DNA from: Candidatus Nomurabacteria bacterium RIFCSPLOWO2_01_FULL_42_17 | GTDB lineage: Bacteria; Patescibacteriota; Minisyncoccia; Phycocordibacterales; UBA9973 | Assembly (NCBI GenBank): GCA_001785985.1 | Contig: MFVE01000005.1 | Location: 178,533-231,770, forward strand | Direction of reading: 5' to 3' | DNA length: 53,238 nt | In this document: positions 19,112 through 45,423 of the stretch, piece by piece | Layout: every line of letters starts with the position of its first letter | How positions within the stretch are numbered: position 1 is the stretch's first letter | Position numbers and translations under genes: made by a program | The notes under the pieces: generated by a model | What the model was told of the DNA's origin: nothing | Seen by the model: the letters and a program-made list of their open reading frames with translations, nothing else | The model's database searches: none

Positions 19112-19492
19112 TTAGCTGCTTAGCTTTTTAGCTTGTAGCTTATTAAGCATGGCATTCAACATTTTCATAACTTCTTCTAATAAAGAATCTATCTTATTAT
19201 AATCTAATTTTATAGTTTTAGGTAATTTTCTGGCTATTATCAGTTGGGTCTCCAGTTCAGCGCCAGATCCGTAAGACATTCTTAAAAAGTGCAGATAATC
19301 AGCCCTAGTTCCTCTACGCCTACCTTCTGCGATGTTAGATGGTATAGAGACCACAGATCTTCTAATTTGCGATGTTAATCCATAAATTTCCTCTCTTGGA
19401 AATTTTTCTGTCAGTTCATACACGCATATTACTAACTCAATTGATTTTTGCCAAACAATTAAATCTTTATATGAATGTATTATCTCGTTCAT
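19112..19492 (-). CDS. four-helix-bundle protein (23S rRNA intervening-sequence protein / Avd-like family)
   Basis: 126 aa. YKDLIVWQKSIELV...TSQIRRSVVSIPSNIAEGRRRGTRADYLHFLRMSYGSGAELETQLIIA is the family signature. The C-terminal KLQAKKLSS is encoded by the flanking repeat. Confidence 0.85.
   Translation of the reverse strand: MNEIIHSYKDLIVWQKSIELVICVYELTEKFPREEIYGLTSQIRRSVVSIPSNIAEGRRRGTRADYLHFLRMSYGSGAELETQLIIARKLPKTIKLDYNKIDSLLEEVMKMLNAMLNKLQAKKLSS
19121..19140. repeat. left arm of 20-nt inverted repeat (19/20) enclosing the four-helix-bundle gene
   Basis: TAGCTTTTTAGCTTGTAGCT. Its partner lies at 19514-19533. Embedded in AGCT-N3-5 periodic tracts. Confidence 0.8.
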
Positions 19493-19513: not shown

Positions 19514-19533
19514 AGCTACAAGCTAATAAGCTA
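19514..19533. repeat. right arm of 20-nt inverted repeat enclosing the four-helix-bundle gene
   Basis: AGCTACAAGCTAATAAGCTA, the reverse complement of the left arm with one mismatch. Confidence 0.8.
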
Positions 19534-20586
19534 TTCAGGTATTTCTCTGTATGGGTCTACTTTTGGCTTTTGGGGTATGGGCAGACTTGCTTCGTTTGCT
19601 GGCCTTGTCAGATTTTCCAATGAGTGTTCAGTTTTGGTTACGCCTGTCTGCACAGAGCCAGATAATTTTTCTACTAAGATCGGATGAACTGCTTCCGGTT
19701 TTTCTATTTTGTTTAATATATCTTCCCTATTCTCTGGTATCTTTCCCGCTTCCAGCTCTAATTGTTGTAATCTTTGGGGGATGATCTCAATGCCGGCCGT
19801 ATTTAATACTTTGGTGTCGCTATTCCCCTCTTGAGGGGTGCTCCGACCAAAGTCGGAGTGGGGTGGATAAGTTTGTCCACCTCCCCCTGAAGGGTACTCC
19901 TCAAGAGGAGAATTCCCTCTCGGAGTATTCATCAGCTTTAATAATTCACGAATCTTCAAAAATATTTTTTCGTTTATGTCTTTGACTAATTTTCCAACTG
20001 TTTCTGATGGCACTTTCAGATCACTCTTTAAATAATTTTCAAATTCATCTGGATGAGTCTTGCCGATTATTAGATCAGTAATTGCTTTTTCCAGAATATC
20101 CATCTGAGCGACAGTTAAGTTATATCCCTTGGCGATATCGTAAAGTATTGCCTGATAATTTGATTTTTTGACAATATCTTCAATTCCTTTTGGAAATTTT
20201 TCGAAACTCCCATTCAATTTTTGTTCAATCTCTGGCACTTGCTCTATCTCTCCTTTTTTATTTGCTTCAAATGCTTCAACTAGTTGAGGGCGAATGGTTT
20301 TTATAATGGACTCCTCTATTTCCATGAGCATTTTATCTGTAGAATCTACTGACAATTTCAACTCATTAGTTATATTTTCTTCGTATTCAACTAAATGAAT
20401 AATACCTAGAAGGACCAAGGTTGTTTCTGTGCCGAGCGTTTCTATTTGCTCATCGTTTAGATTATATTTCTGGCTGATTGTTTTTAAGGTTTCCAGCCAA
20501 CCCATACTCGAAAACATTTCTTGCACTTTTTGTGGAAGTTTTGAATAATATAAAGCTATTTTTTCTTGTAATTCTTTTTGGTCCAT
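19531..20586 (-). CDS. cytoplasmic protein of unknown function (two tandem helical domains), carries an in-frame repeat-element insertion
   Basis: 351 aa with no TM or signal peptide. Two similar ~90-aa helical modules, and a Gly/Pro-rich insert at the element position. Confidence 0.55.
   Translation of the reverse strand: MDQKELQEKIALYYSKLPQKVQEMFSSMGWLETLKTISQKYNLNDEQIETLGTETTLVLLGIIHLVEYEENITNELKLSVDSTDKMLMEIEESIIKTIRPQLVEAFEANKKGEIEQVPEIEQKLNGSFEKFPKGIEDIVKKSNYQAILYDIAKGYNLTVAQMDILEKAITDLIIGKTHPDEFENYLKSDLKVPSETVGKLVKDINEKIFLKIRELLKLMNTPRGNSPLEEYPSGGGGQTYPPHSDFGRSTPQEGNSDTKVLNTAGIEIIPQRLQQLELEAGKIPENREDILNKIEKPEAVHPILVEKLSGSVQTGVTKTEHSLENLTRPANEASLPIPQKPKVDPYREIPE
19823..19914 (-). mobile_element. 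92-nt palindromic MITE/RPE-like element, copy 1 (in frame inside a CDS)
   Basis: The 14-nt terminal inverted repeat is TTCCCCTCTTGAGG...CCTCAAGAGGAGAA. Shares 18-nt 5' and 22-nt 3' identical blocks plus the GGGGTGGATA..TCCACCTCCCC core with 44599-44684. Confidence 0.7.
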
Positions 20587-27163: not shown

Positions 27164-28007
27164 GCGCAATCCAATCTGCGAGTGCCAAATCCTCCGCTCT
27201 TTTATTTCCTAATGATGTCAGGGATGCCCCTTGACAGACGTCTTTTAGGTTGCTAGAGAGCTTTTTTCTCTTATGCGCAAAGCCTTTTTTGACTATTTCC
27301 CAGAATTTTTCTTCGAATGCCTGATTGTCCAAGATTTTATCTTGGACAATCGCTTTGCCTCCCTCTCCTTCATCAGGAGAGGGTTGGGGTGAGGTGAATA
27401 GCTTGCGTGAAATATTTTTTATGGAAATTATTGCAGAATTTACTTTAGGCGCAGGTGAAAAATATCTTTTATCCACTTTCATAATCATTTTCGGTTCGCC
27501 ATAGGCTTTGACAGAGATAGAAAGGATGCTCTCTTTCTTGCCCGCCTTAGCTTTAGCGGCGGAGGGGCTATTACCGATTATTCTTTGGGCCACTTCGTGC
27601 TGGACCATCAGCACCATCAAGCTTGGCTGGTTTTCGGCTGTTAGAAACTTTTTCAAAATCGCGCCGGTGATATTGTAAGGGATGTTGGCGATTAGCTTGT
27701 AGGTTGTAGCTTGTAGGTTGTAGCTTTTCAAATCAAATTCTAATATGTCACCTTGTATTAATTTCAGTTGACCAGACGAGATCTCTTTTTGGAATTTAAT
27801 TTGTAGTAGTTCACATAAATCTTTGTCTTTCTCTACAGCTACAAGCTGACAGCTACAAGCTAAAAGCTGTTTAGTCAGCGCTCCCCTGCCCGGACCGATT
27901 TCTAAAATCACATCATCCGATTTTATTTCTCCCGCTTCAATAATCTTTCGCAGAGCTATCTCTGATTTTAAAAAATTTTGCCCTAATGATTTCTTTGCCT
28001 GGTGCAT
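27132..28007 (-). CDS. rsmA: 16S rRNA (adenine1518/1519-N6)-dimethyltransferase
   Basis: 291 aa. KSLGQNFL, EIGPGRGALT and ANIPYNITG motifs. Confidence 0.93.
   Translation of the reverse strand: MHQAKKSLGQNFLKSEIALRKIIEAGEIKSDDVILEIGPGRGALTKQLLACSCQLVAVEKDKDLCELLQIKFQKEISSGQLKLIQGDILEFDLKSYNLQATTYKLIANIPYNITGAILKKFLTAENQPSLMVLMVQHEVAQRIIGNSPSAAKAKAGKKESILSISVKAYGEPKMIMKVDKRYFSPAPKVNSAIISIKNISRKLFTSPQPSPDEGEGGKAIVQDKILDNQAFEEKFWEIVKKGFAHKRKKLSSNLKDVCQGASLTSLGNKRAEDLALADWIALTKEMNRPME
27325..27383. repeat. two perfect 9-bp hairpins forming an in-frame ~26-codon insertion in rsmA
   Basis: TTGTCCAAG-attttat-CTTGGACAA (27325-27349) and CCCTCTCCT-tcatc-AGGAGAGGG (27361-27383). They encode ...PSPDEGEGGKAIVQDKILDN..., which is absent from typical RsmA. 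Confidence 0.65.
27694..27725. repeat. 14-nt tandem (AGCTTGTAGGTTGT x2.3) inside rsmA; left arm of a 32-nt imperfect inverted repeat
   Basis: Pairs with 27837-27868 at 26 of 32 positions. Same AGCTTGTAGCT family as the four-helix-bundle flanks. Confidence 0.8.
27837..27868. repeat. 14-nt tandem (AGCTACAAGCTGAC/AGCTACAAGCTAAA) inside rsmA; right arm
   Basis: AGCTACAAGCTAAaAAGCT matches the right flank of the four-helix-bundle gene at 18/19. Confidence 0.8.
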
Positions 28008-28049: not shown

Positions 28050-30089
28050 CTACTCAAGGTAAATTGTTTTAATGCCACCCTTTTCTCCTTCTTTTTCCAA
28101 TAAATCTGCCGGAATGTCCGAAATAAATTCCGATGGTGCATTTATTTGGCGCGATCCGAAAATTGTGCGGAAATTTGCAAATGATAAAAATAATTTACTT
28201 CGAGCGCGCGTGACGGCCACATAGAAAAGTCTGCGTTCCTCTTCGCTGTCAAAACCATCTGCCTCATCATGTCTTTTGTGCGGGAAAAGCCCGTCTTCCA
28301 GTCCGGTGATAAAAACGTTATTAAATTCAAGCCCTTTCGAAGCATGCACCGTCATTAACTTCACGGCGTCTATTTTTTCTTTTTTATTTTCTGTGACAAT
28401 TAGCGAATCTTGGTCCGAAGCCAGCGACGCATCTTCTAAAAGCTTTTCTATGCCGGCGCCGTTCTCTAAATTGTCATATTTCAGGGCCAAAGTTGCGAGC
28501 TCTTTTATGTTTTCCAATCTTTCGATGTCTTCTTCACCGCCACTTGCTAGTTCTGCTTCGATGCCGGAAGTTTTTACCACAAATTTTATTATGTCAGATG
28601 TTTTTGAATTATGGATTTTTTCTTTTATTTCTTCCAGCGTCTGATAAAAATTATTTATCTTAATTCTCATTTTTACCGGCAGACTCTCTATCTCATTGGC
28701 GAAAATTTTCACTAAAGTCACCTTTCCGATGCCCCGCGCAGGAAAATTTATTATCCTTTTTATATCCGACAGACTTTCTGGATTTAGTGCGGCGCGCAGA
28801 TACGCCAAAGTATCTTTGATTTCTTTTCTTTCAAAAAATTTTACTCCTAAAACTTGGTATGGAATATTATAGCGTAGCATTGCCTCTTCCAGCGCTCGCG
28901 ATTGAAAATTCGCGCGGTAAAGAATTGAAATTTCCGACAACGGAGCGGGTGTGCCGGGACGGGGTGTCTCGCAGACCGACGGGTCGAGAGGCAGCGCTCC
29001 GCGAGCACGCGGAGACAGCGACCCCGCAACGGCAGCACCCGCTCCGTTGTCTATAATCTCCAGAATTTTAGTCGCCACGAAGTCGGCTTCGTCATTTTCA
29101 TCGAGTGCCTCGTACAGTCCGATTTTTTCTCCGGTATTTTTTCTGGTAAATAAATTTTTGTCCGGCCTATATTTATTTTTTTTGATTATCGTATTGGCCG
29201 CTTCCAGAATATTTTTGGTTGATCGGTAATTTTCCTCCAACAAAACTATCTTTGCATTTGGGTAATCTTTTTCAAAACTTAAAATATTTTTCAAGTTTGC
29301 TCCGCGCCACGAATATATATTTTGGTCCGCATCTCCCACGACACAAATGTTTTGATTATTTTCTGAGAGTAATTTTGACATTAAATATTGCACTTCGTTG
29401 GTGTCTTGGTATTCATCGATATGGATATATTCCCATTTTTCCTGATAAATTTTTCTGATTTCAGCGTTATCTTTCAATAGTTTTGTCGCTTTTAGGAGCA
29501 GATCGTCAAAATCCAACGAATTTTCTTTCATTTTTTTCTTTTCATATAAATTCCAAACTTGCGCCACCATCACACCGTACGTACCCTTTTCTCTCTCCGC
29601 ATAATCTGCCAAATGCGTGAATTTCCCCTTTTCTCGCGAAATTATATTTTTTATTTTCTTCGGATCGTATTGTTTTGGATCTATTCCGATCTCTTTCAGT
29701 ATTTCTTTTATTATTGAATTTGCGTCTCCCTCATCTAGAATTGTGAAATACTTCGTCAAGCCCAAAAGTCTGGCATTTTCTTTTATGATATAAACTCCGA
29801 GAGAGTGAAAAGTGCTCACAAATGGAATCTTCTCTTGACCTGTTGTGTTTTTTTGAATTTCTAAGATAATTCTCTCCCGCATTTCCTTTGCCGCCTTATT
29901 TGTAAAAGTAACAGCCAAAATACGCTCTGGAGATATCCCCTCTTTTATTAAATTCACAATTCTATGAGTGATCGTTTTGGTTTTACCCGCGCCCGCTCCG
30001 GCAATGATCAGAAGCGGACCACCTGTGTGGATGGCCGCTTCTCTTTGTTCTTTATTTAATTCCGATAGATGATTTGTGTCTGTATTCAC
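28050..30089 (-). CDS. pcrA: ATP-dependent DNA helicase PcrA/UvrD
   Basis: 679 aa. AGAGAGKTKT (motif I), DEYQDTN (II), VGDADQNIYSWRGA (III) and VTRARSKLF (VI). Confidence 0.93.
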   Translation of the reverse strand: MNTDTNHLSELNKEQREAAIHTGGPLLIIAGAGAGKTKTITHRIVNLIKEGISPERILAVTFTNKAAKEMRERIILEIQKNTTGQEKIPFVSTFHSLGVYIIKENARLLGLTKYFTILDEGDANSIIKEILKEIGIDPKQYDPKKIKNIISREKGKFTHLADYAEREKGTYGVMVAQVWNLYEKKKMKENSLDFDDLLLKATKLLKDNAEIRKIYQEKWEYIHIDEYQDTNEVQYLMSKLLSENNQNICVVGDADQNIYSWRGANLKNILSFEKDYPNAKIVLLEENYRSTKNILEAANTIIKKNKYRPDKNLFTRKNTGEKIGLYEALDENDEADFVATKILEIIDNGAGAAVAGSLSPRARGALPLDPSVCETPRPGTPAPLSEISILYRANFQSRALEEAMLRYNIPYQVLGVKFFERKEIKDTLAYLRAALNPESLSDIKRIINFPARGIGKVTLVKIFANEIESLPVKMRIKINNFYQTLEEIKEKIHNSKTSDIIKFVVKTSGIEAELASGGEEDIERLENIKELATLALKYDNLENGAGIEKLLEDASLASDQDSLIVTENKKEKIDAVKLMTVHASKGLEFNNVFITGLEDGLFPHKRHDEADGFDSEEERRLFYVAVTRARSKLFLSFANFRTIFGSRQINAPSEFISDIPADLLEKEGEKGGIKTIYLE
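28936..29051. mobile_element. 116-nt GC-rich palindromic element inserted in frame in pcrA
   Basis: Perfect 16-nt terminal inverted repeat GACAACGGAGCGGGTG...CACCCGCTCCGTTGTC with nested internal palindromes (CTCCGCG-agca-CGCGGAG). Encodes GAGAAVAGSLSPRARGALPLDPSVCETPRPGTPAPL. Confidence 0.75.
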
Positions 30090-34017: not shown

Positions 34018-34022
34018 CTAGA

Positions 34023-34139
34023 AGAATCCCTAAAATATAAACTTTTCTCCGGTACGGATTTTTTGAAGCTTAAAAAATCCTGAAGTTCTCGCACCGTCGC
34101 GCTCGAAACCCCTGCGAAAAGTTATATTTCAGGGATTCT
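34023..34139. repeat. nested inverted repeats between convergent genes (24-nt outer imperfect IR + inner 9-bp hairpin)
   Basis: Outer arms are AGAATCCCTAAAATATAAACTTTTC (34023-34047) and GAAAAGTTATATTTCAGGGATTCT (34116-34139). The inner hairpin is GGATTTTTT-gaagctt-AAAAAATCC (34056-34080), a likely bidirectional terminator. Confidence 0.6.
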
Positions 34140-34889
34140 TTACTCTAGGAAAGTCAAAGCGACCATGGCTAAAATCCCAACTATAACCGCCATTATCTGT
34201 AAAATAGAATGTTTTATTTCTTTTGTTTTTTGAAGTTCAGGAATTAAATCAGCGACTGCGATATAAATAAATCCGCCAGCCGCAATGGGCAAGAACCAGA
34301 AGCTTATGGTTTGCGCAATTTGACTTAGGATTAGCACAAAGAAGAGTCCAAGAAGTGCTACTATGGCCGAAAGAAAATTAAGCCACAATGCGCGCGCCTT
34401 CGTATAGCCAGAGTGGATCAATACCGCAAAATCCCCTATTTCTTGGGGTATTTCATGTAGTATCACAGCTATTGTCGTAGCGATGCCGAGAGGGATGCTC
34501 GCCATAAAGCTTGCTCCGATGATTATTCCGTCGATAAAATTGTGCACTCCATCTGAAATAAGGACTAACTTTCCAACCGGATGAATATGTGAGTCCGCCT
34601 TGTCTTCCCCGTGGTGATGCCAATGAAGAAACTTTTCCAGAATAAAGAAAATCAGAATGCCGATGATGATCAGTATGCTGGTCAAGGTTGAATTGCTGGA
34701 AACTTCGAGAACTTCAGGTATGAGATGAATAAAAGCATCTCCTAAAAGCGCTCCGACCGCTAGTGAAATGAAAATAAATATATATTTTCTTAAAATTTCT
34801 TCCCTTAATGAAAGGGTGAAAACTCCGGCCAGTGAAACCAGGCTGACAATAATAACGCTGATAAATGCATAAATGTATGATGTTGCCAT
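34140..34889 (-). CDS. ZIP-family divalent metal transporter (ZupT-like)
   Basis: 249 aa, ~8 TM. HEIPQEIGDFAVL signature and a His-rich loop HWHHHGEDKADSHIH. Confidence 0.88.
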   Translation of the reverse strand: MATSYIYAFISVIIVSLVSLAGVFTLSLREEILRKYIFIFISLAVGALLGDAFIHLIPEVLEVSSNSTLTSILIIIGILIFFILEKFLHWHHHGEDKADSHIHPVGKLVLISDGVHNFIDGIIIGASFMASIPLGIATTIAVILHEIPQEIGDFAVLIHSGYTKARALWLNFLSAIVALLGLFFVLILSQIAQTISFWFLPIAAGGFIYIAVADLIPELQKTKEIKHSILQIMAVIVGILAMVALTFLE

Positions 34890-36390: not shown

Positions 36391-38067
36391 GTGGACTCAA
36401 AAAATAAAAATCTAGACAAAAGTTTATTGTCTAAAATACCCACGGAAGTTTCATATGTAACAGACACTCTTGAAAGTGCTGGTTTTGAGGCGTATTTGGT
36501 GGGTGGCTGTGTTCGAGATCTAATAATCGACAAAAAACCTAAGGACTGGGATGTGACAACAAATGCAAAACCAGCCCAAATTATAAGCCTTTTTGAGAAA
36601 ACAGTATATGAAAATGACTTTGGAACCGTCGGGGTATATATCCCAAGCGAGAATTCAGTAGAGGGTGAGGTTATTCATGAAACAAATAGTAGTGATGTTA
36701 TTCGTGAAACATCCAAATATAAGGTTATTGAGGTTACACCATATAGGCTGGAGGCTAAATATAGTGATTTTAGGCATCCAGACGAGGTTAAATTCAGTGA
36801 CAAGCTAGAAGATGATCTTAAAAGACGTGACTTTACCATAAACGCCATGGCTTTAAGTTATAAAGGACATCTAACAGACATGTTCAATGGTCTAAAGGAC
36901 ATAAAGGACAAGACGTTGAGAGCAGTTGGAAATCCTGATGATCGATTCAAAGAAGATGCGTTACGAATGTTGCGCGCGATTCGTTTCGCTTGCCAACTCG
37001 GATTTTCTGTGTCATATGAAACTTCGGAAAGTATTTTAAAAAATGCAGATTTAATAAAAAAAATATCGGGAGAACGCATACGCGATGAATTTGTAAAAAT
37101 AATAATGTCAGAAAATCCAAGCAGGGGAATTGTCATGTTGCAGAAATTTGGATTGCTAAAAAATATTATTCCAGAGCTCGAAGAGGGGATAGGTTGCGAG
37201 CAATTAGGAGAACATATTTACGATGTTTGGGACCATCTACTGCATGCTCTTGCTCATGCGGCGGACAAGAATTGGCCTTTAGAAATAAGGCTGGCTGCGC
37301 TTTTTCATGATATTGGTAAGCCGAAAACTAGGAGATTGGCGGAGTCTTTCCCGACGAAAAATTCCCCCACCTTCGCCCCCCTAGACAAGAGGACAGGGGA
37401 CCCACGGCTCCTAAAATTTTTGTCGGGAAAAACTCCTGCCGCAAAGAAACAATACACTTTTTACGGCCATGAAGTTGTCGGCGCGAGGATGGCGAAAAAA
37501 ATAATGGAGAGATTAAAATTTTCGAAAAAAGAAATTGAATTGGTGGAAAAACTTGTCCGCAATCATATGTTTTTTTCTGATACGGAGTTGATCACACTTT
37601 CTGCTGTGCGTAGAATCATTGCAAAAGTCGGTGTGGACAATATTTGGCTTTTGATGAACATCCGCGAGTGCGATAGGGTAGGCATGAAGAAAAAAGAGGC
37701 GCCATATCGCCTGCGAAAATATTTTGCCATGATCGAAGAAGCTTTGCGAGATCCAATATCAGTCGGCCAGCTCAAAATTAATGGAGAATTTATGATTAAA
37801 GAGCTTGATATCAAGCCAGGGCCGAGAATGGGGTGGATATTGCACGCCTTGCTCGAAGAAGTGCTGGAAGATCCAAAGAAAAATACAGTCGAAAATCTGT
37901 CAGAGATAGTGAGAACTCTGGATAAACTTGACAATAAAGAGCTCAAAGCGCTTGGCGATAAAGGGAAAGAAAAAAAAGAGGAGCTAGAAGAAAAGGAAGT
38001 CGAAAAATTACACGCTAAACATGGGGTGAGATTGGGTAAGGGACCCAATCGCAAGGCCGGAGCCTGA
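36391..38067 (+). CDS. cca: CCA-adding enzyme (tRNA nucleotidyltransferase) with HD domain
   Basis: Shows GFEAYLVGGCVRDLI, DWDV, RRDFTINAM and HD-domain FHDIGKP...GHE. The track start 36325 lies inside tRNA-Gly. GTG 36391 is the first possible start after the tRNA, with TTG 36424 as the alternative. None of the four tRNAs encodes CCA, consistent with this gene being needed. Confidence 0.88.
   Translation: MDSKNKNLDKSLLSKIPTEVSYVTDTLESAGFEAYLVGGCVRDLIIDKKPKDWDVTTNAKPAQIISLFEKTVYENDFGTVGVYIPSENSVEGEVIHETNSSDVIRETSKYKVIEVTPYRLEAKYSDFRHPDEVKFSDKLEDDLKRRDFTINAMALSYKGHLTDMFNGLKDIKDKTLRAVGNPDDRFKEDALRMLRAIRFACQLGFSVSYETSESILKNADLIKKISGERIRDEFVKIIMSENPSRGIVMLQKFGLLKNIIPELEEGIGCEQLGEHIYDVWDHLLHALAHAADKNWPLEIRLAALFHDIGKPKTRRLAESFPTKNSPTFAPLDKRTGDPRLLKFLSGKTPAAKKQYTFYGHEVVGARMAKKIMERLKFSKKEIELVEKLVRNHMFFSDTELITLSAVRRIIAKVGVDNIWLLMNIRECDRVGMKKKEAPYRLRKYFAMIEEALRDPISVGQLKINGEFMIKELDIKPGPRMGWILHALLEEVLEDPKKNTVENLSEIVRTLDKLDNKELKALGDKGKEKKEELEEKEVEKLHAKHGVRLGKGPNRKAGA
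37347..37430. mobile_element. 84-nt palindromic element inserted in frame in the cca HD domain
   Basis: Terminal inverted repeat TTTCCCGACGAAAAATT...AATTTTTGTCGGGAAA with one indel and a GC-rich interior. Encodes FPTKNSPTFAPLDKRTGDPRLLKFLSGK between HDIGKP and the GHE motif. Confidence 0.7.
38038..38062. repeat. 25-nt direct repeat, copy 1 (contains 8-bp hairpin GATTGGGT-aaggg-ACCCAATC)
   Basis: AGATTGGGTAAGGGACCCAATCGCA. Forms the last codons of cca. Confidence 0.85.
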
Positions 38068-38125
38068 CGAGGCGAGGAGGGCTCGCGAGATTTTTCAGCA
38101 GAAAAATACTTGTGTAAGATTGGGT

Positions 38126-38150
38126 AAGGGACCCAATCGCAGTGATACAA
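38126..38150. repeat. 25-nt direct repeat, copy 2
   Basis: Identical 25-mer 88 nt downstream of copy 1, just before the M23 peptidase start. Confidence 0.85.
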
Positions 38151-44324: not shown

Positions 44325-45341
44325 TTACCCCTTATTATGAAACTTCTTATGTATATCCCGCAAGTGTTTGTCTGTCACATGCGTATAAATCTGGGTGGTG
44401 CCGATATTGGCATGGCCGAGCATGGCTTGTACTGAGCGTATGTCCGCGCCGTTGCTGAGAAGGTCAGTTGCGAACATGTGGCGCAACACATGAGGAGTGA
44501 CTTTCTTTGCGATACCGGCTTTGATGGCATAGTGTTTCACTATCCTTTCCACTGAATGCCTGTCTAAGTTGTCGTATTCTTTGCCTTTGTATTTTTTCTT
44601 CCCCTCTTGAGGGGTGGCACTTGTGCCGGGGTGGATATTTTTTCCACCTCCCCGCTTATGGCGGTACTCCTCAAGAGGAGAATTATCAAGACGAATGAAA
44701 AGCCCATCACCCATATCTTTGCGCGCATCCAGATATTTTTCGAGGGCTTCTTGAGCTTTTTTGGAAATGAAGACGACGCGCACCTTGCCGCCCTTGCCTC
44801 GCACTGACAATTCTTCTGAATGAGGGTTTATGTCTCTCGGCAGGGAACACAGCTCTGCCACGCGCAGGCCGGTAGAAAAAAGAAATTCTAAAATTGCTTT
44901 ATCTCGCAGACTTTTTATGTCGTTGCCACTGGGCATATCGAGCAGGCGAGTGAGCTCGGCCGGAGTTATGAGGTCGATGGATCGCTCGGGGATTTTGGCG
45001 AGCTCGATGCGGTCGCTCGGCAGGGATTTTATTTCTCTTTTTACCAGATATTTTAAAAATACGCGCAGAGCTATCAAATGAAAGTTTTGCGTCTTCTTTG
45101 ATAAAGTTTCTGGATGATTTAAAGTTTTACCTGTCCGAGCCCGCGTGGGATGTCTGTTCAACCAGAGGCGAAATTCCCGCAGCACATCGTCTGTGATGTC
45201 GCTCGCGGTTTTTACTTTCGTATGATCGAAAAATCGGGTGAGGTAATGCTGGTAATTCTCGATCGTACGAGCAGAAGAACCTTTCTCGATTTCCAGATAC
45301 TCGAAAAATTCTCGCTGCAGCTTGTCTATTTCCGTAGCCAT
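44325..45341 (-). CDS. tyrosine recombinase, XerC/XerD family
   Basis: 338 aa. N-terminal SAM-like domain, catalytic R...HVLRHMFAT...LGHANIGTTQIYTHV. Carries an in-frame repeat-element insertion. Confidence 0.88.
   Translation of the reverse strand: MATEIDKLQREFFEYLEIEKGSSARTIENYQHYLTRFFDHTKVKTASDITDDVLREFRLWLNRHPTRARTGKTLNHPETLSKKTQNFHLIALRVFLKYLVKREIKSLPSDRIELAKIPERSIDLITPAELTRLLDMPSGNDIKSLRDKAILEFLFSTGLRVAELCSLPRDINPHSEELSVRGKGGKVRVVFISKKAQEALEKYLDARKDMGDGLFIRLDNSPLEEYRHKRGGGKNIHPGTSATPQEGKKKYKGKEYDNLDRHSVERIVKHYAIKAGIAKKVTPHVLRHMFATDLLSNGADIRSVQAMLGHANIGTTQIYTHVTDKHLRDIHKKFHNKG
44599..44684 (-). mobile_element. 86-nt palindromic MITE/RPE-like element, copy 2 (in frame inside the xer gene)
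   Basis: Homologous to 19823-19914 with the same orientation and the same terminal inverted repeat. Encodes NSPLEEYRHKRGGGKNIHPGTSATPQEG versus NSPLEEYPSGGGGQTYPPHSDFGRSTPQEG in copy 1. Confidence 0.7.
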
Positions 45342-45383
45342 ACCCTAATTTTAGCACAAAATATTGTGGAACTCTGTACCCAA

Positions 45384-45406
45384 CCTCCCCCTTAACAAGG
45401 GGGAGG
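45384..45406. repeat. perfect 10-bp polypyrimidine/polypurine hairpin
   Basis: CCTCCCCCTT-aac-AAGGGGGAGG in the xer/rpsO divergent spacer. Same CCYCTC/GAGRGG style as the in-frame elements. Confidence 0.7.
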
Positions 45407-45423
45407 AGAAGGAGGGGGTGAAT

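Follow-up and report, generated by a model that had tools for sequence, protein, structure and literature searches.

Rickettsia palindromic elements (RPEs) are known palindromic elements that occur in frame within genes (Ogata et al., 2000, 2002, summarised in PMC10969869). Here we describe a repeat of comparable layout in Candidatus Nomurabacteria bacterium RIFCSPLOWO2_01_FULL_42_17, where two copies lie within a stretch of 53,238 nucleotides (hereafter the window; assembly GCA_001785985.1, contig MFVE01000005.1, positions 178,533 to 231,770 of the forward strand). [quoted passage not shown] Like RPEs, it is a short palindromic repeat scattered over a small genome densely packed with genes, a large share of its copies lie in frame in unrelated housekeeping genes with a conserved peptide that is compatible with the fold of the host, it is common to the species of a lineage and it has no known transposase. 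The differences are nevertheless considerable. The element is shorter (80-100 bp compared with about 100-150 bp), belongs to another phylum and was compared with RPEs by layout; it forms a four-way junction with two freely swapping hairpin modules; its peptide is rich in proline and glycine and predicted to be disordered; its arms are near-invariant across species; and the same codon positions host different palindrome families in different species. Because its hosts are Patescibacteria, it is at most an analogue of RPEs and not a member of that group.

Prokaryotic MITEs such as Correia/NEMIS, ERIC, QMITE of Coxiella and Nezha are also small, have terminal inverted repeats and are occasionally fused in frame to genes, and they occur in many copies that are polymorphic for presence or absence. 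The element corresponds to this pattern in being small and devoid of a transposase gene, in its terminal inverted repeats and in its dispersed copies with presence/absence differences. However, a target-site duplication could not be demonstrated for it, pattern searches, which do not span gene-length gaps, turned up no parent insertion sequence, and about half of its copies are intragenic and read through. A preliminary description of the window used the term MITE/RPE-like; a four-way-junction palindrome with modular hairpins fits better than a simple MITE. Repetitive extragenic palindromic (REP) sequences and their doublets (REPINs), which are associated with REP-associated tyrosine transposases (RAYTs), provide a further parallel, since each arm of the element is a short hairpin (CCCCT-CTTG-AGGGG and CTCCT-CAAG-AGGAG) and the two are mutually inverted to give a long hairpin, single half elements exist, and RAYT-like genes associated with a TCTTG apex are abundant in the lineage. 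In contrast, REPs are extragenic and flank their own RAYT gene, whereas the element has the two inverted hairpin units of a REPIN but flanks no RAYT gene in the 80 RAYT loci fetched and often lies inside genes. Finally, integron attC sites and the ends of IS200-IS605 insertion sequences, which recombine as folded single strands, are like the element imperfect palindromes whose two arms are told apart by fixed mismatches, and in parts of the element structure is more conserved than sequence, but the element lacks a cassette or transposase context, possesses true terminal inverted repeats and shows no strand asymmetry in its variable stems. The literature that we searched on MITEs, RPEs, RAYTs and palindromic repeats in the candidate phyla radiation (CPR), Patescibacteria, Parcubacteria and Nomurabacteria holds no description of the element, in line with the earlier statement that such inserts are uncharacterised for CPR genomes, and the phylum goes unmentioned in a review of prokaryotic MITEs from 2024.

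We consider it probable (roughly three chances in four) that the element is a mobile palindrome of the RPE/MITE type, the intragenic copies of which are translated as loops predicted to be disordered. Transposition or recombination at the DNA level would insert the element through recognition of its arms and central hairpin, selection would remove insertions in other orientations and frames, and the peptide of the surviving intragenic copies (for example, the segments SPLEEYPLGGGG and ATPQEGN) would sit on the surface of the host proteins as a disordered loop, where these are variable and permissive. The two copies in the window, their component hairpins and their host genes are as follows.

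19822 to 19914, + form (5' arm first): copy 1, whole element; 88 bits with the covariance model
19822 to 19840, +: copy 1, 5' arm ATTCCCCTCTTGAGGGGTG, itself a small hairpin, CCCCT-CTTG-AGGGG
19841 to 19858, +: copy 1, P2 (a variable hairpin), CTCCGACCAAAGTCGGAG; other copies have this module in the P4 position
19860 to 19883, +: copy 1, conserved central hairpin P3, GGGGTGGA-loop-TCCACCTC
19884 to 19894, +: copy 1, short variable hairpin P4, CCC-TGAA-GGG
19895 to 19913, +: copy 1, 3' arm TACTCCTCAAGAGGAGAAT, complementary to the 5' arm at 16/18 positions
19531 to 20586, -: copy 1 host gene, encoding a 351-amino-acid protein in a gene cluster resembling a type IV secretion system (T4SS); the minus-strand reading of copy 1 within this open reading frame (ORF) gives the peptide NSPLEEYPSGGGGQTYPPHSDFGRSTPQEGN
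44598 to 44684, +: copy 2, whole element; 83 bits with the covariance model
44598 to 44616, +: copy 2, 5' arm
44616 to 44627, +: copy 2, P2 hairpin GGCACTTGTGCC, unlike the P2 of copy 1 in sequence, a hairpin nonetheless
44628 to 44653, +: copy 2, central hairpin P3
44652 to 44664, +: copy 2, P4 hairpin CCGC-TTATG-GCGG
44664 to 44683, +: copy 2, 3' arm
44325 to 45341, -: copy 2 host gene, a Xer-type tyrosine recombinase (Phage_integrase plus SAM-like N-terminal domain); the minus-strand reading of copy 2 gives the peptide NSPLEEYRHKRGGGKNIHPGTSATPQEGK

Alignment of the two copies reveals a common 5' sequence, TTCCCCTCTTGAGGGGTG, a common 3' sequence, GGTACTCCTCAAGAGGAGAATT, and the core GGGGTGGA..TCCACCTCCCC, with segments in between that differ, and so bears out the 18-nt and 22-nt terminal blocks and the core noted previously. 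A 16-nt arm pattern with up to three mismatches matches the window four times, at both arms of both copies, compared with 0.16 matches expected from shuffled sequence, and hence the similarity of the copies is far above that of shuffled controls. A covariance model built from family copies places the boundaries at 19822-19913 (88 bits) and 44598-44683 (83 bits) and matches just these two copies in the window. The terminal inverted repeat was correctly recognised in the preliminary description, but its length is 18 nt, with 16/18 positions complementary, and not 14 nt (13/14). Since this 18-bp repeat, with its CTTG/CAAG-looped arms, is combined with a central hairpin and two variable side hairpins, a single strand of the element folds to a four-way junction: either strand of each copy folds into a long terminal stem, P1, that encloses hairpins P2, P3 and P4, with folding energies of -55 and -48 kcal/mol (z = -6.3 and -6.6). 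As noted before, neither copy interrupts the reading frame of its host, the 351-amino-acid ORF or the Xer recombinase, with a stop codon. Both are read on the minus strand, and from the junction Asn codon to the opposite Asn/Lys codon they span 93 nt and 87 nt, both multiples of 3.

To survey the family, species-representative genomes were scanned for two arms with 40-70 nt between them, which yielded at least 116 loci and at least 121 copies; all counts of orientation, context and sequence type given here refer to the copies listed from that scan, which derive from roughly 45 metagenome-assembled genomes (MAGs). Almost all copies are in Nomurabacteria/Paceibacterota/Patescibacteria MAGs from many independent studies. 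They are 79-101 nt in length, leaving no space for a gene, and follow a common plan of ATTCCCCTCTTGAGGGGTG, a P2 hairpin, GGGGTGGA-loop-TCCACCTCCCC, a P4 hairpin and GTACTCCTCAAGAGGAGAAT. The search pattern fixes approximately 60% of the arm positions, and the arm and P3 positions that it leaves free are at least 90% conserved. Individual genomes have many copies, about 6-12 per genome among those found and at least 10 on a single 813-kb contig, and presence or absence differs between related genomes. This dispersal, the presence/absence differences and the in-frame location in many housekeeping genes uphold the earlier view of an RPE/MITE-like repeat. Variants with perfect arms and a long AT-rich loop are also found (L059:3730-3842 and L028:3228-3342), as are single half elements consisting of the 5' arm, P2 and GGGGTGGA (L004:7571, L038, L068, L076, L088, L103, L160 and L200), one half element being in frame within RsmA (STPLPQAGAPLKRGM). 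The full element was not found in IMG/VR, where one half element is present on a 4-kb contig, and the plasmid and phage collections that were searched contain no match to the element. At the protein level, a word-indexed search of protein databases with the peptide returned 13 candidates and a profile search 9 weak matches, the latter being uninformative because the query comprises 37 residues.

Element-bearing contigs also occur in bins outside the Patescibacteria, namely L002 and L018 (Simkania sp. MAG) and L061 (Burkholderiales MAG). L002 and L018 contain CPR-type pilin genes, while L061 has 32% GC and encodes a PheT that is 65% identical to Nomurabacteria PheT. The Simkania- and Burkholderiales-labelled contigs are probably mis-binned Patescibacteria DNA.

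The genomes are gene-dense, and most copies are located within genes or right at their ends. Sixty-one copies (about half) are inside long ORFs, 54 of them in the orientation seen in the window and mostly in one frame. With the inserts masked, the intragenic copies fall into approximately 24 host protein clusters, 15 of which look like genuine internal in-frame hosts (13 in the window orientation and 2 in the opposite one). On host names that we assigned by reading translations and Pfam-type motifs, insertion recurs in RsmA (7 species), PheT (7), Tgt (6) and UvrB (5), with TsaD (4 species) and RNase R (2) hosting the opposite orientation; it also recurs in the family of the window's 351-amino-acid protein (8), in IF2, in PcrA and in an FAD-linked oxidase. 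At least 52 intragenic copies are read through, with the conserved peptide NSPLEEY...TPQEGN, and 42 of 52 belong to a single length class modulo 3, compared with a distribution of 33/23/15 for the remaining listed copies. The favoured frame is open in 81% of copies, and since the other frames are open in 47-63%, the choice of frame goes beyond the avoidance of stop codons. The favoured peptide, of the form NSPLEEYP-GGGG/GEVD-...-TPQEGN, consists of 15.5% Pro, 14.5% Gly, 14% Glu and 11% Ser, and the alternative frames encode hydrophobic or basic peptides. Because intragenic copies keep the frame, lack stop codons and are almost all in the orientation and frame of this Pro/Gly/Glu/Ser-rich peptide, selection against other insertions appears likely. 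Outside long ORFs, most copies adjoin or overlap the upstream gene's stop codon (-13 to +5 nt).

Comparison with orthologues demonstrates that the segment is an insertion and not a native part of the host proteins. The Xer protein of L024 and the closest Xer orthologues in the databases (approximately 80% identity) are without it, and the site corresponds in the family to a hypervariable hydrophilic loop in which other orthologues carry other inserts; in the closest relative by nucleotide sequence (75% identical) the loop is rearranged. The insert occupies approximately residues 221-251 of the window Xer, a variable loop ahead of the C-terminal catalytic helices, and the positions flanking residues 219-251 correspond to contiguous residues, 195 and 196, in the solved XerC-like structure 4a8e. 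In an AlphaFold2 model of Xer, the sole host modelled, residues 221-251 have predicted confidence (pLDDT) values of 33-43 between well-folded parts, consistent with the surface loop anticipated in the preliminary description. UvrB provides a second empty site: L116 and L033 contain the element, L082 does not, and the flanks are 84-87% identical to L082. Removal of the element together with one AAT/AATT leaves the eight residues AGFNYPGQ, collinear with AGGDFPGQ of L082. In the family of the 351-amino-acid protein the element is in an unalignable, poorly conserved linker, and in one species it is in a different place. These orthologues and the solved structure agree with the earlier view of the segment as an insert: the peptide is not a conserved part of its host families.

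The insertion points recur as sites for unrelated palindromes. The exact PcrA, RsmA and Tgt positions that are filled by the element in some species hold unrelated palindromic inserts elsewhere, and in the window itself the inserts in rsmA (27320-27390, z -8.3) and pcrA (28927-29060, z -7.9) are strongly palindromic, belong to other families and are situated at codon positions used by the element; the pcrA insert family also occurs in L115. A segment of cca (37341-37436) comprises 96 nt with 23-nt complementary arms and a C-rich interior and is read through in frame, scoring 12.8 bits with the covariance model of the element, to which it is not related, and the hairpin at 45380-45410 is real (z -4.5). 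These four of the further palindromes proposed previously are well founded, whereas those in pnp and comM are weak (z -2.2 and -1.1). We considered the other window palindromes as diverged members of the element family, but rejected this since none exceeds 13 bits with the covariance model. Additional repeats are present in the same genes. The interior of rsmA contains a 32-nt inverted repeat (27694-27725 and 27837-27868; 81% complementary, 111 nt apart) with units resembling AGCTTGTAGGTTGTAGCT, and the hairpin GTGAGATTGGGTAAGGGACCCAATCGCA occurs twice (28 nt each, 96% identical), at and just past the 3' end of cca (38026-38053 and 38114-38141).

Several observations weigh against a mobile, tolerated element. 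At sites common to 4-7 species the arms are 98-99% identical, compared with 65-70% for 120 nt of coding flank. P3 is conserved even though it is read in two frames (25 copies give GGG(G) and 17 give GEV(D/E)), and decayed full copies are rare, the covariance model detecting only 4 extra copies in 750 kb of fetched loci. As a passively tolerated old insertion should decay, rapid turnover, gene conversion or selection at the nucleotide level is needed. The orientation of intergenic copies is also biased (26 versus 10), which is not explicable by selection on the peptide. With regard to mobility, flank statistics reveal no variable direct repeat, only an invariant AT/AATT at both ends that may be a duplication or a part of the inverted repeat, and neither an autonomous partner nor a cognate transposase was found, the RAYT-like genes in the same genomes being flanked by other hairpins. 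Furthermore, translation of the element in its host proteins is something that we infer. Replication does not readily provide a cause for the orientation bias, as the orientations on the 813-kb contig (-,-,+,+,-,-,+,+,-,-) do not form two replichores; in the window, GC skew tracks gene strand. The best empty site, UvrB of L082 (87% identical by junction BLAST), is compatible with either AT or AATT, and no orphan arm pair enclosing a gene was seen in the fetched loci, in pattern searches that do not span gene-length gaps.

A more specific version of the mobile-palindrome explanation names the enzyme: the element might be a REPIN-like doublet, two inverted REP-type hairpins with a spacer, moved as folded single-stranded DNA by a RAYT-like (IS200-type Y1/HUH) transposase. 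RAYT/REP systems are real and abundant in the lineage. Three element-bearing genomes (L016, L065 and L097) contain RAYT-like Y1 genes no more than 8 kb from copies, and these genes match Pfam PF01797 and, below its cut-off, NCBIfam REP_Tyr_transpos. The RAYT-like genes are as follows, with others in L120-L199.

L016, 5759-6494: RAYT-like gene
L065, 2048-2779: RAYT-like gene
L097, 1053-1790: RAYT-like gene
L201, 2950-3680: RAYT-like gene

The genes in L016, L065 and L097 each have their own short hairpin on both sides, with a further copy of the hairpin inside the transposase gene in L016 and L097. A protein search identified at least 7372 RAYT-like clusters in Patescibacteria, one of which is named RayT by its source, and a metagenome scan at least 492 loci, of which 80 were fetched and 35 had enough flank on both sides; in most of these 35 the flanking hairpins have variable stems and a conserved apex, AGG(T/C)CTTGCCT. 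We found no description of Patescibacteria RAYT/REP-hairpin systems in the literature searched. The REP apex AGG-TCTTG-CCT recalls the element arms CCCC-TCTTG-AGGGG and CTCC-TCAAGA-GGAG, the commonest P2 modules are CTTG-looped as well, and the symmetric-arm variants and half elements are comparable to REPIN doublets and REP singlets. Yet element arms flank none of the 80 RAYT loci, the RAYT gene of the element-rich genome JAPLXV01 is flanked by an ordinary REP hairpin, TGCGTTAGG-TCTTG-CCTAACGCA, RAYT-type REPs are almost never in long ORFs (2/83), unlike the element, and the match of the TCTTG pentamer may be coincidence. On account of the element-free flanks, the ordinary REPs of JAPLXV01 and the rarity of intragenic REPs, mobilisation by RAYT serves as a lead only, and the doublet explanation is possible but, in our judgement, unlikely.

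The extreme conservation of the arms across species is not by itself accounted for by a selfish and merely tolerated element, so that the RPE-like setting in essential genes envisaged in the preliminary description stands, but tolerance alone does not suffice. The arms may be kept alike by rapid turnover, in which copies insert again and again at sites that are permissive or already bear a palindrome, by gene conversion among the copies or by selection on the nucleotide sequence. As a tentative and rather doubtful further reading, the near-invariant arms and P3 could be a four-way-junction signal for a conserved Patescibacteria factor, or else a site-specific 'homing' palindrome that replaces others at the same codon positions, in which case a structure-recognising recombinase (HUH/RAYT-like or tyrosine) would be used.

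We regard it as quite unlikely, in turn, that selection in situ maintains the arms and central hairpin as a nucleic-acid signal with a function and that the element is not merely tolerated selfish DNA. Such a signal could be the binding site of a conserved host protein that acts in genome maintenance, in replication or recombination, or in the uptake of DNA, or else a four-way junction in mRNA with an effect on translation or stability. Each of the conservation findings described above (the identity of arms relative to flanks at the same codon position in 4-7 species, the retention of P3 irrespective of reading frame and the small number of decayed copies) would be expected of such a signal, as would the orientation bias with respect to transcription, which extends to intergenic copies that are typically just past stop codons. 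Among the listed copies, orthologous copies differ as much in P2 and P4 as random ones, with two exceptions: RsmA copies share a P4 type in 6/7 species, which is consistent with common descent and favours a signal, and in LBZW01 5/9 copies share one P2 type, a single-genome enrichment which suggests bursts of copying and argues the other way. Presence and absence also vary between close relatives, with empty sites in Xer and UvrB orthologues, unrelated palindromes occupy the same sites in other species, the copy number (~6-12 found per genome) is low for an uptake or maintenance signal, and no G:U asymmetry marks an RNA strand.

The pairing itself is a property of DNA. P2 comprises 63 sequence types and P4 comprises 40, nearly all of which are hairpins, far beyond composition-matched shuffles, and the modules are discrete and exchange places, TCCGACC..GGTCGGA being the P2 of window copy 1 and the P4 of others. 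The variable stems contain 500 Watson-Crick pairs, 8 G:T and 10 A:C, and hence no strand asymmetry. Rfam 15 contains no family that matches the element at gathering or permissive thresholds (best match 18.8 bits, compared with a gathering score of 41), tRNAs alone passing in the window. From the absence of both a G:T asymmetry and an Rfam match it follows that the pairing is either selected as a DNA property or generated by the copying mechanism. It is accordingly highly improbable that the element is a structured non-coding RNA specific to one strand, whether a gene or a cis-regulatory RNA, whose overlap with coding sequence is fortuitous. The very stable predicted fold with its low z-score, the persistence of pairing in the side hairpins despite many sequence changes and the slightly better folding of the '+' form than the '-' form in 94/116 copies are what such an RNA would give, but the strand difference arises because of a few fixed G:T mismatches in P1 and P3, the equal G:T and A:C counts of the variable stems tell against a strand-specific RNA, copies occur in both orientations relative to genes, and the constraints on frame, length and stop codons show that the sequence is treated as coding. 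We give virtually no credence to the segment being ordinary ancestral host-protein sequence or an artefact of assembly, for which the uninterrupted reading frames speak and nothing further, as the same 80-100 nt recur in intergenic DNA and in over 13 protein families unrelated to one another, orthologues and solved structures are without the segment, and MAGs of many independent studies carry it.

If the element is indeed a mobile palindrome translated in its hosts, selfish or co-opted DNA can still spread in the tiny, gene-dense genomes of Patescibacteria by way of permissive protein loops, as RPEs do in Rickettsia. The essential proteins affected are UvrB, PheT, IF2, RsmA, Tgt, TsaD, RNase R, PcrA and Xer, which the inserts lengthen and diversify, creating hot spots that are reused by different palindrome families. 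In work on CPR proteins, such inserts can mislead the calling of genes, alignments, phylogenetic markers and the prediction of structures. The near-invariant arms, together with abundant RAYT-like transposases that have REP hairpins of their own, offer a concrete system in which to study movement and persistence, and a functional junction signal or homing palindrome, if true, would constitute a new mode of palindrome biology within coding sequence.

The host gene of copy 1 has no Pfam match in its 351-amino-acid product. Because its neighbours include a TraG/VirB4-type ATPase, a PrgI-like protein and a T4SS pilin, the label 'T4SS operon' is reasonable. The ORF directly downstream of this gene (19112-19492) belongs by similarity with the 23S rRNA intervening-sequence protein family (E 6e-37) and has a weak match to bAvd-like proteins. 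For the Xer gene (44325-45341), the database protein P0072 has just 203 amino acids and is 100% identical over 60% of the 338-amino-acid ORF, and therefore the deposited gene call may be truncated. Elsewhere in the window, long inverted repeats are present at 2319-2473 and 34022-34140, with arms of 26 nt and 24 nt that are 88% complementary, the second of which adjoins a tRNA gene.

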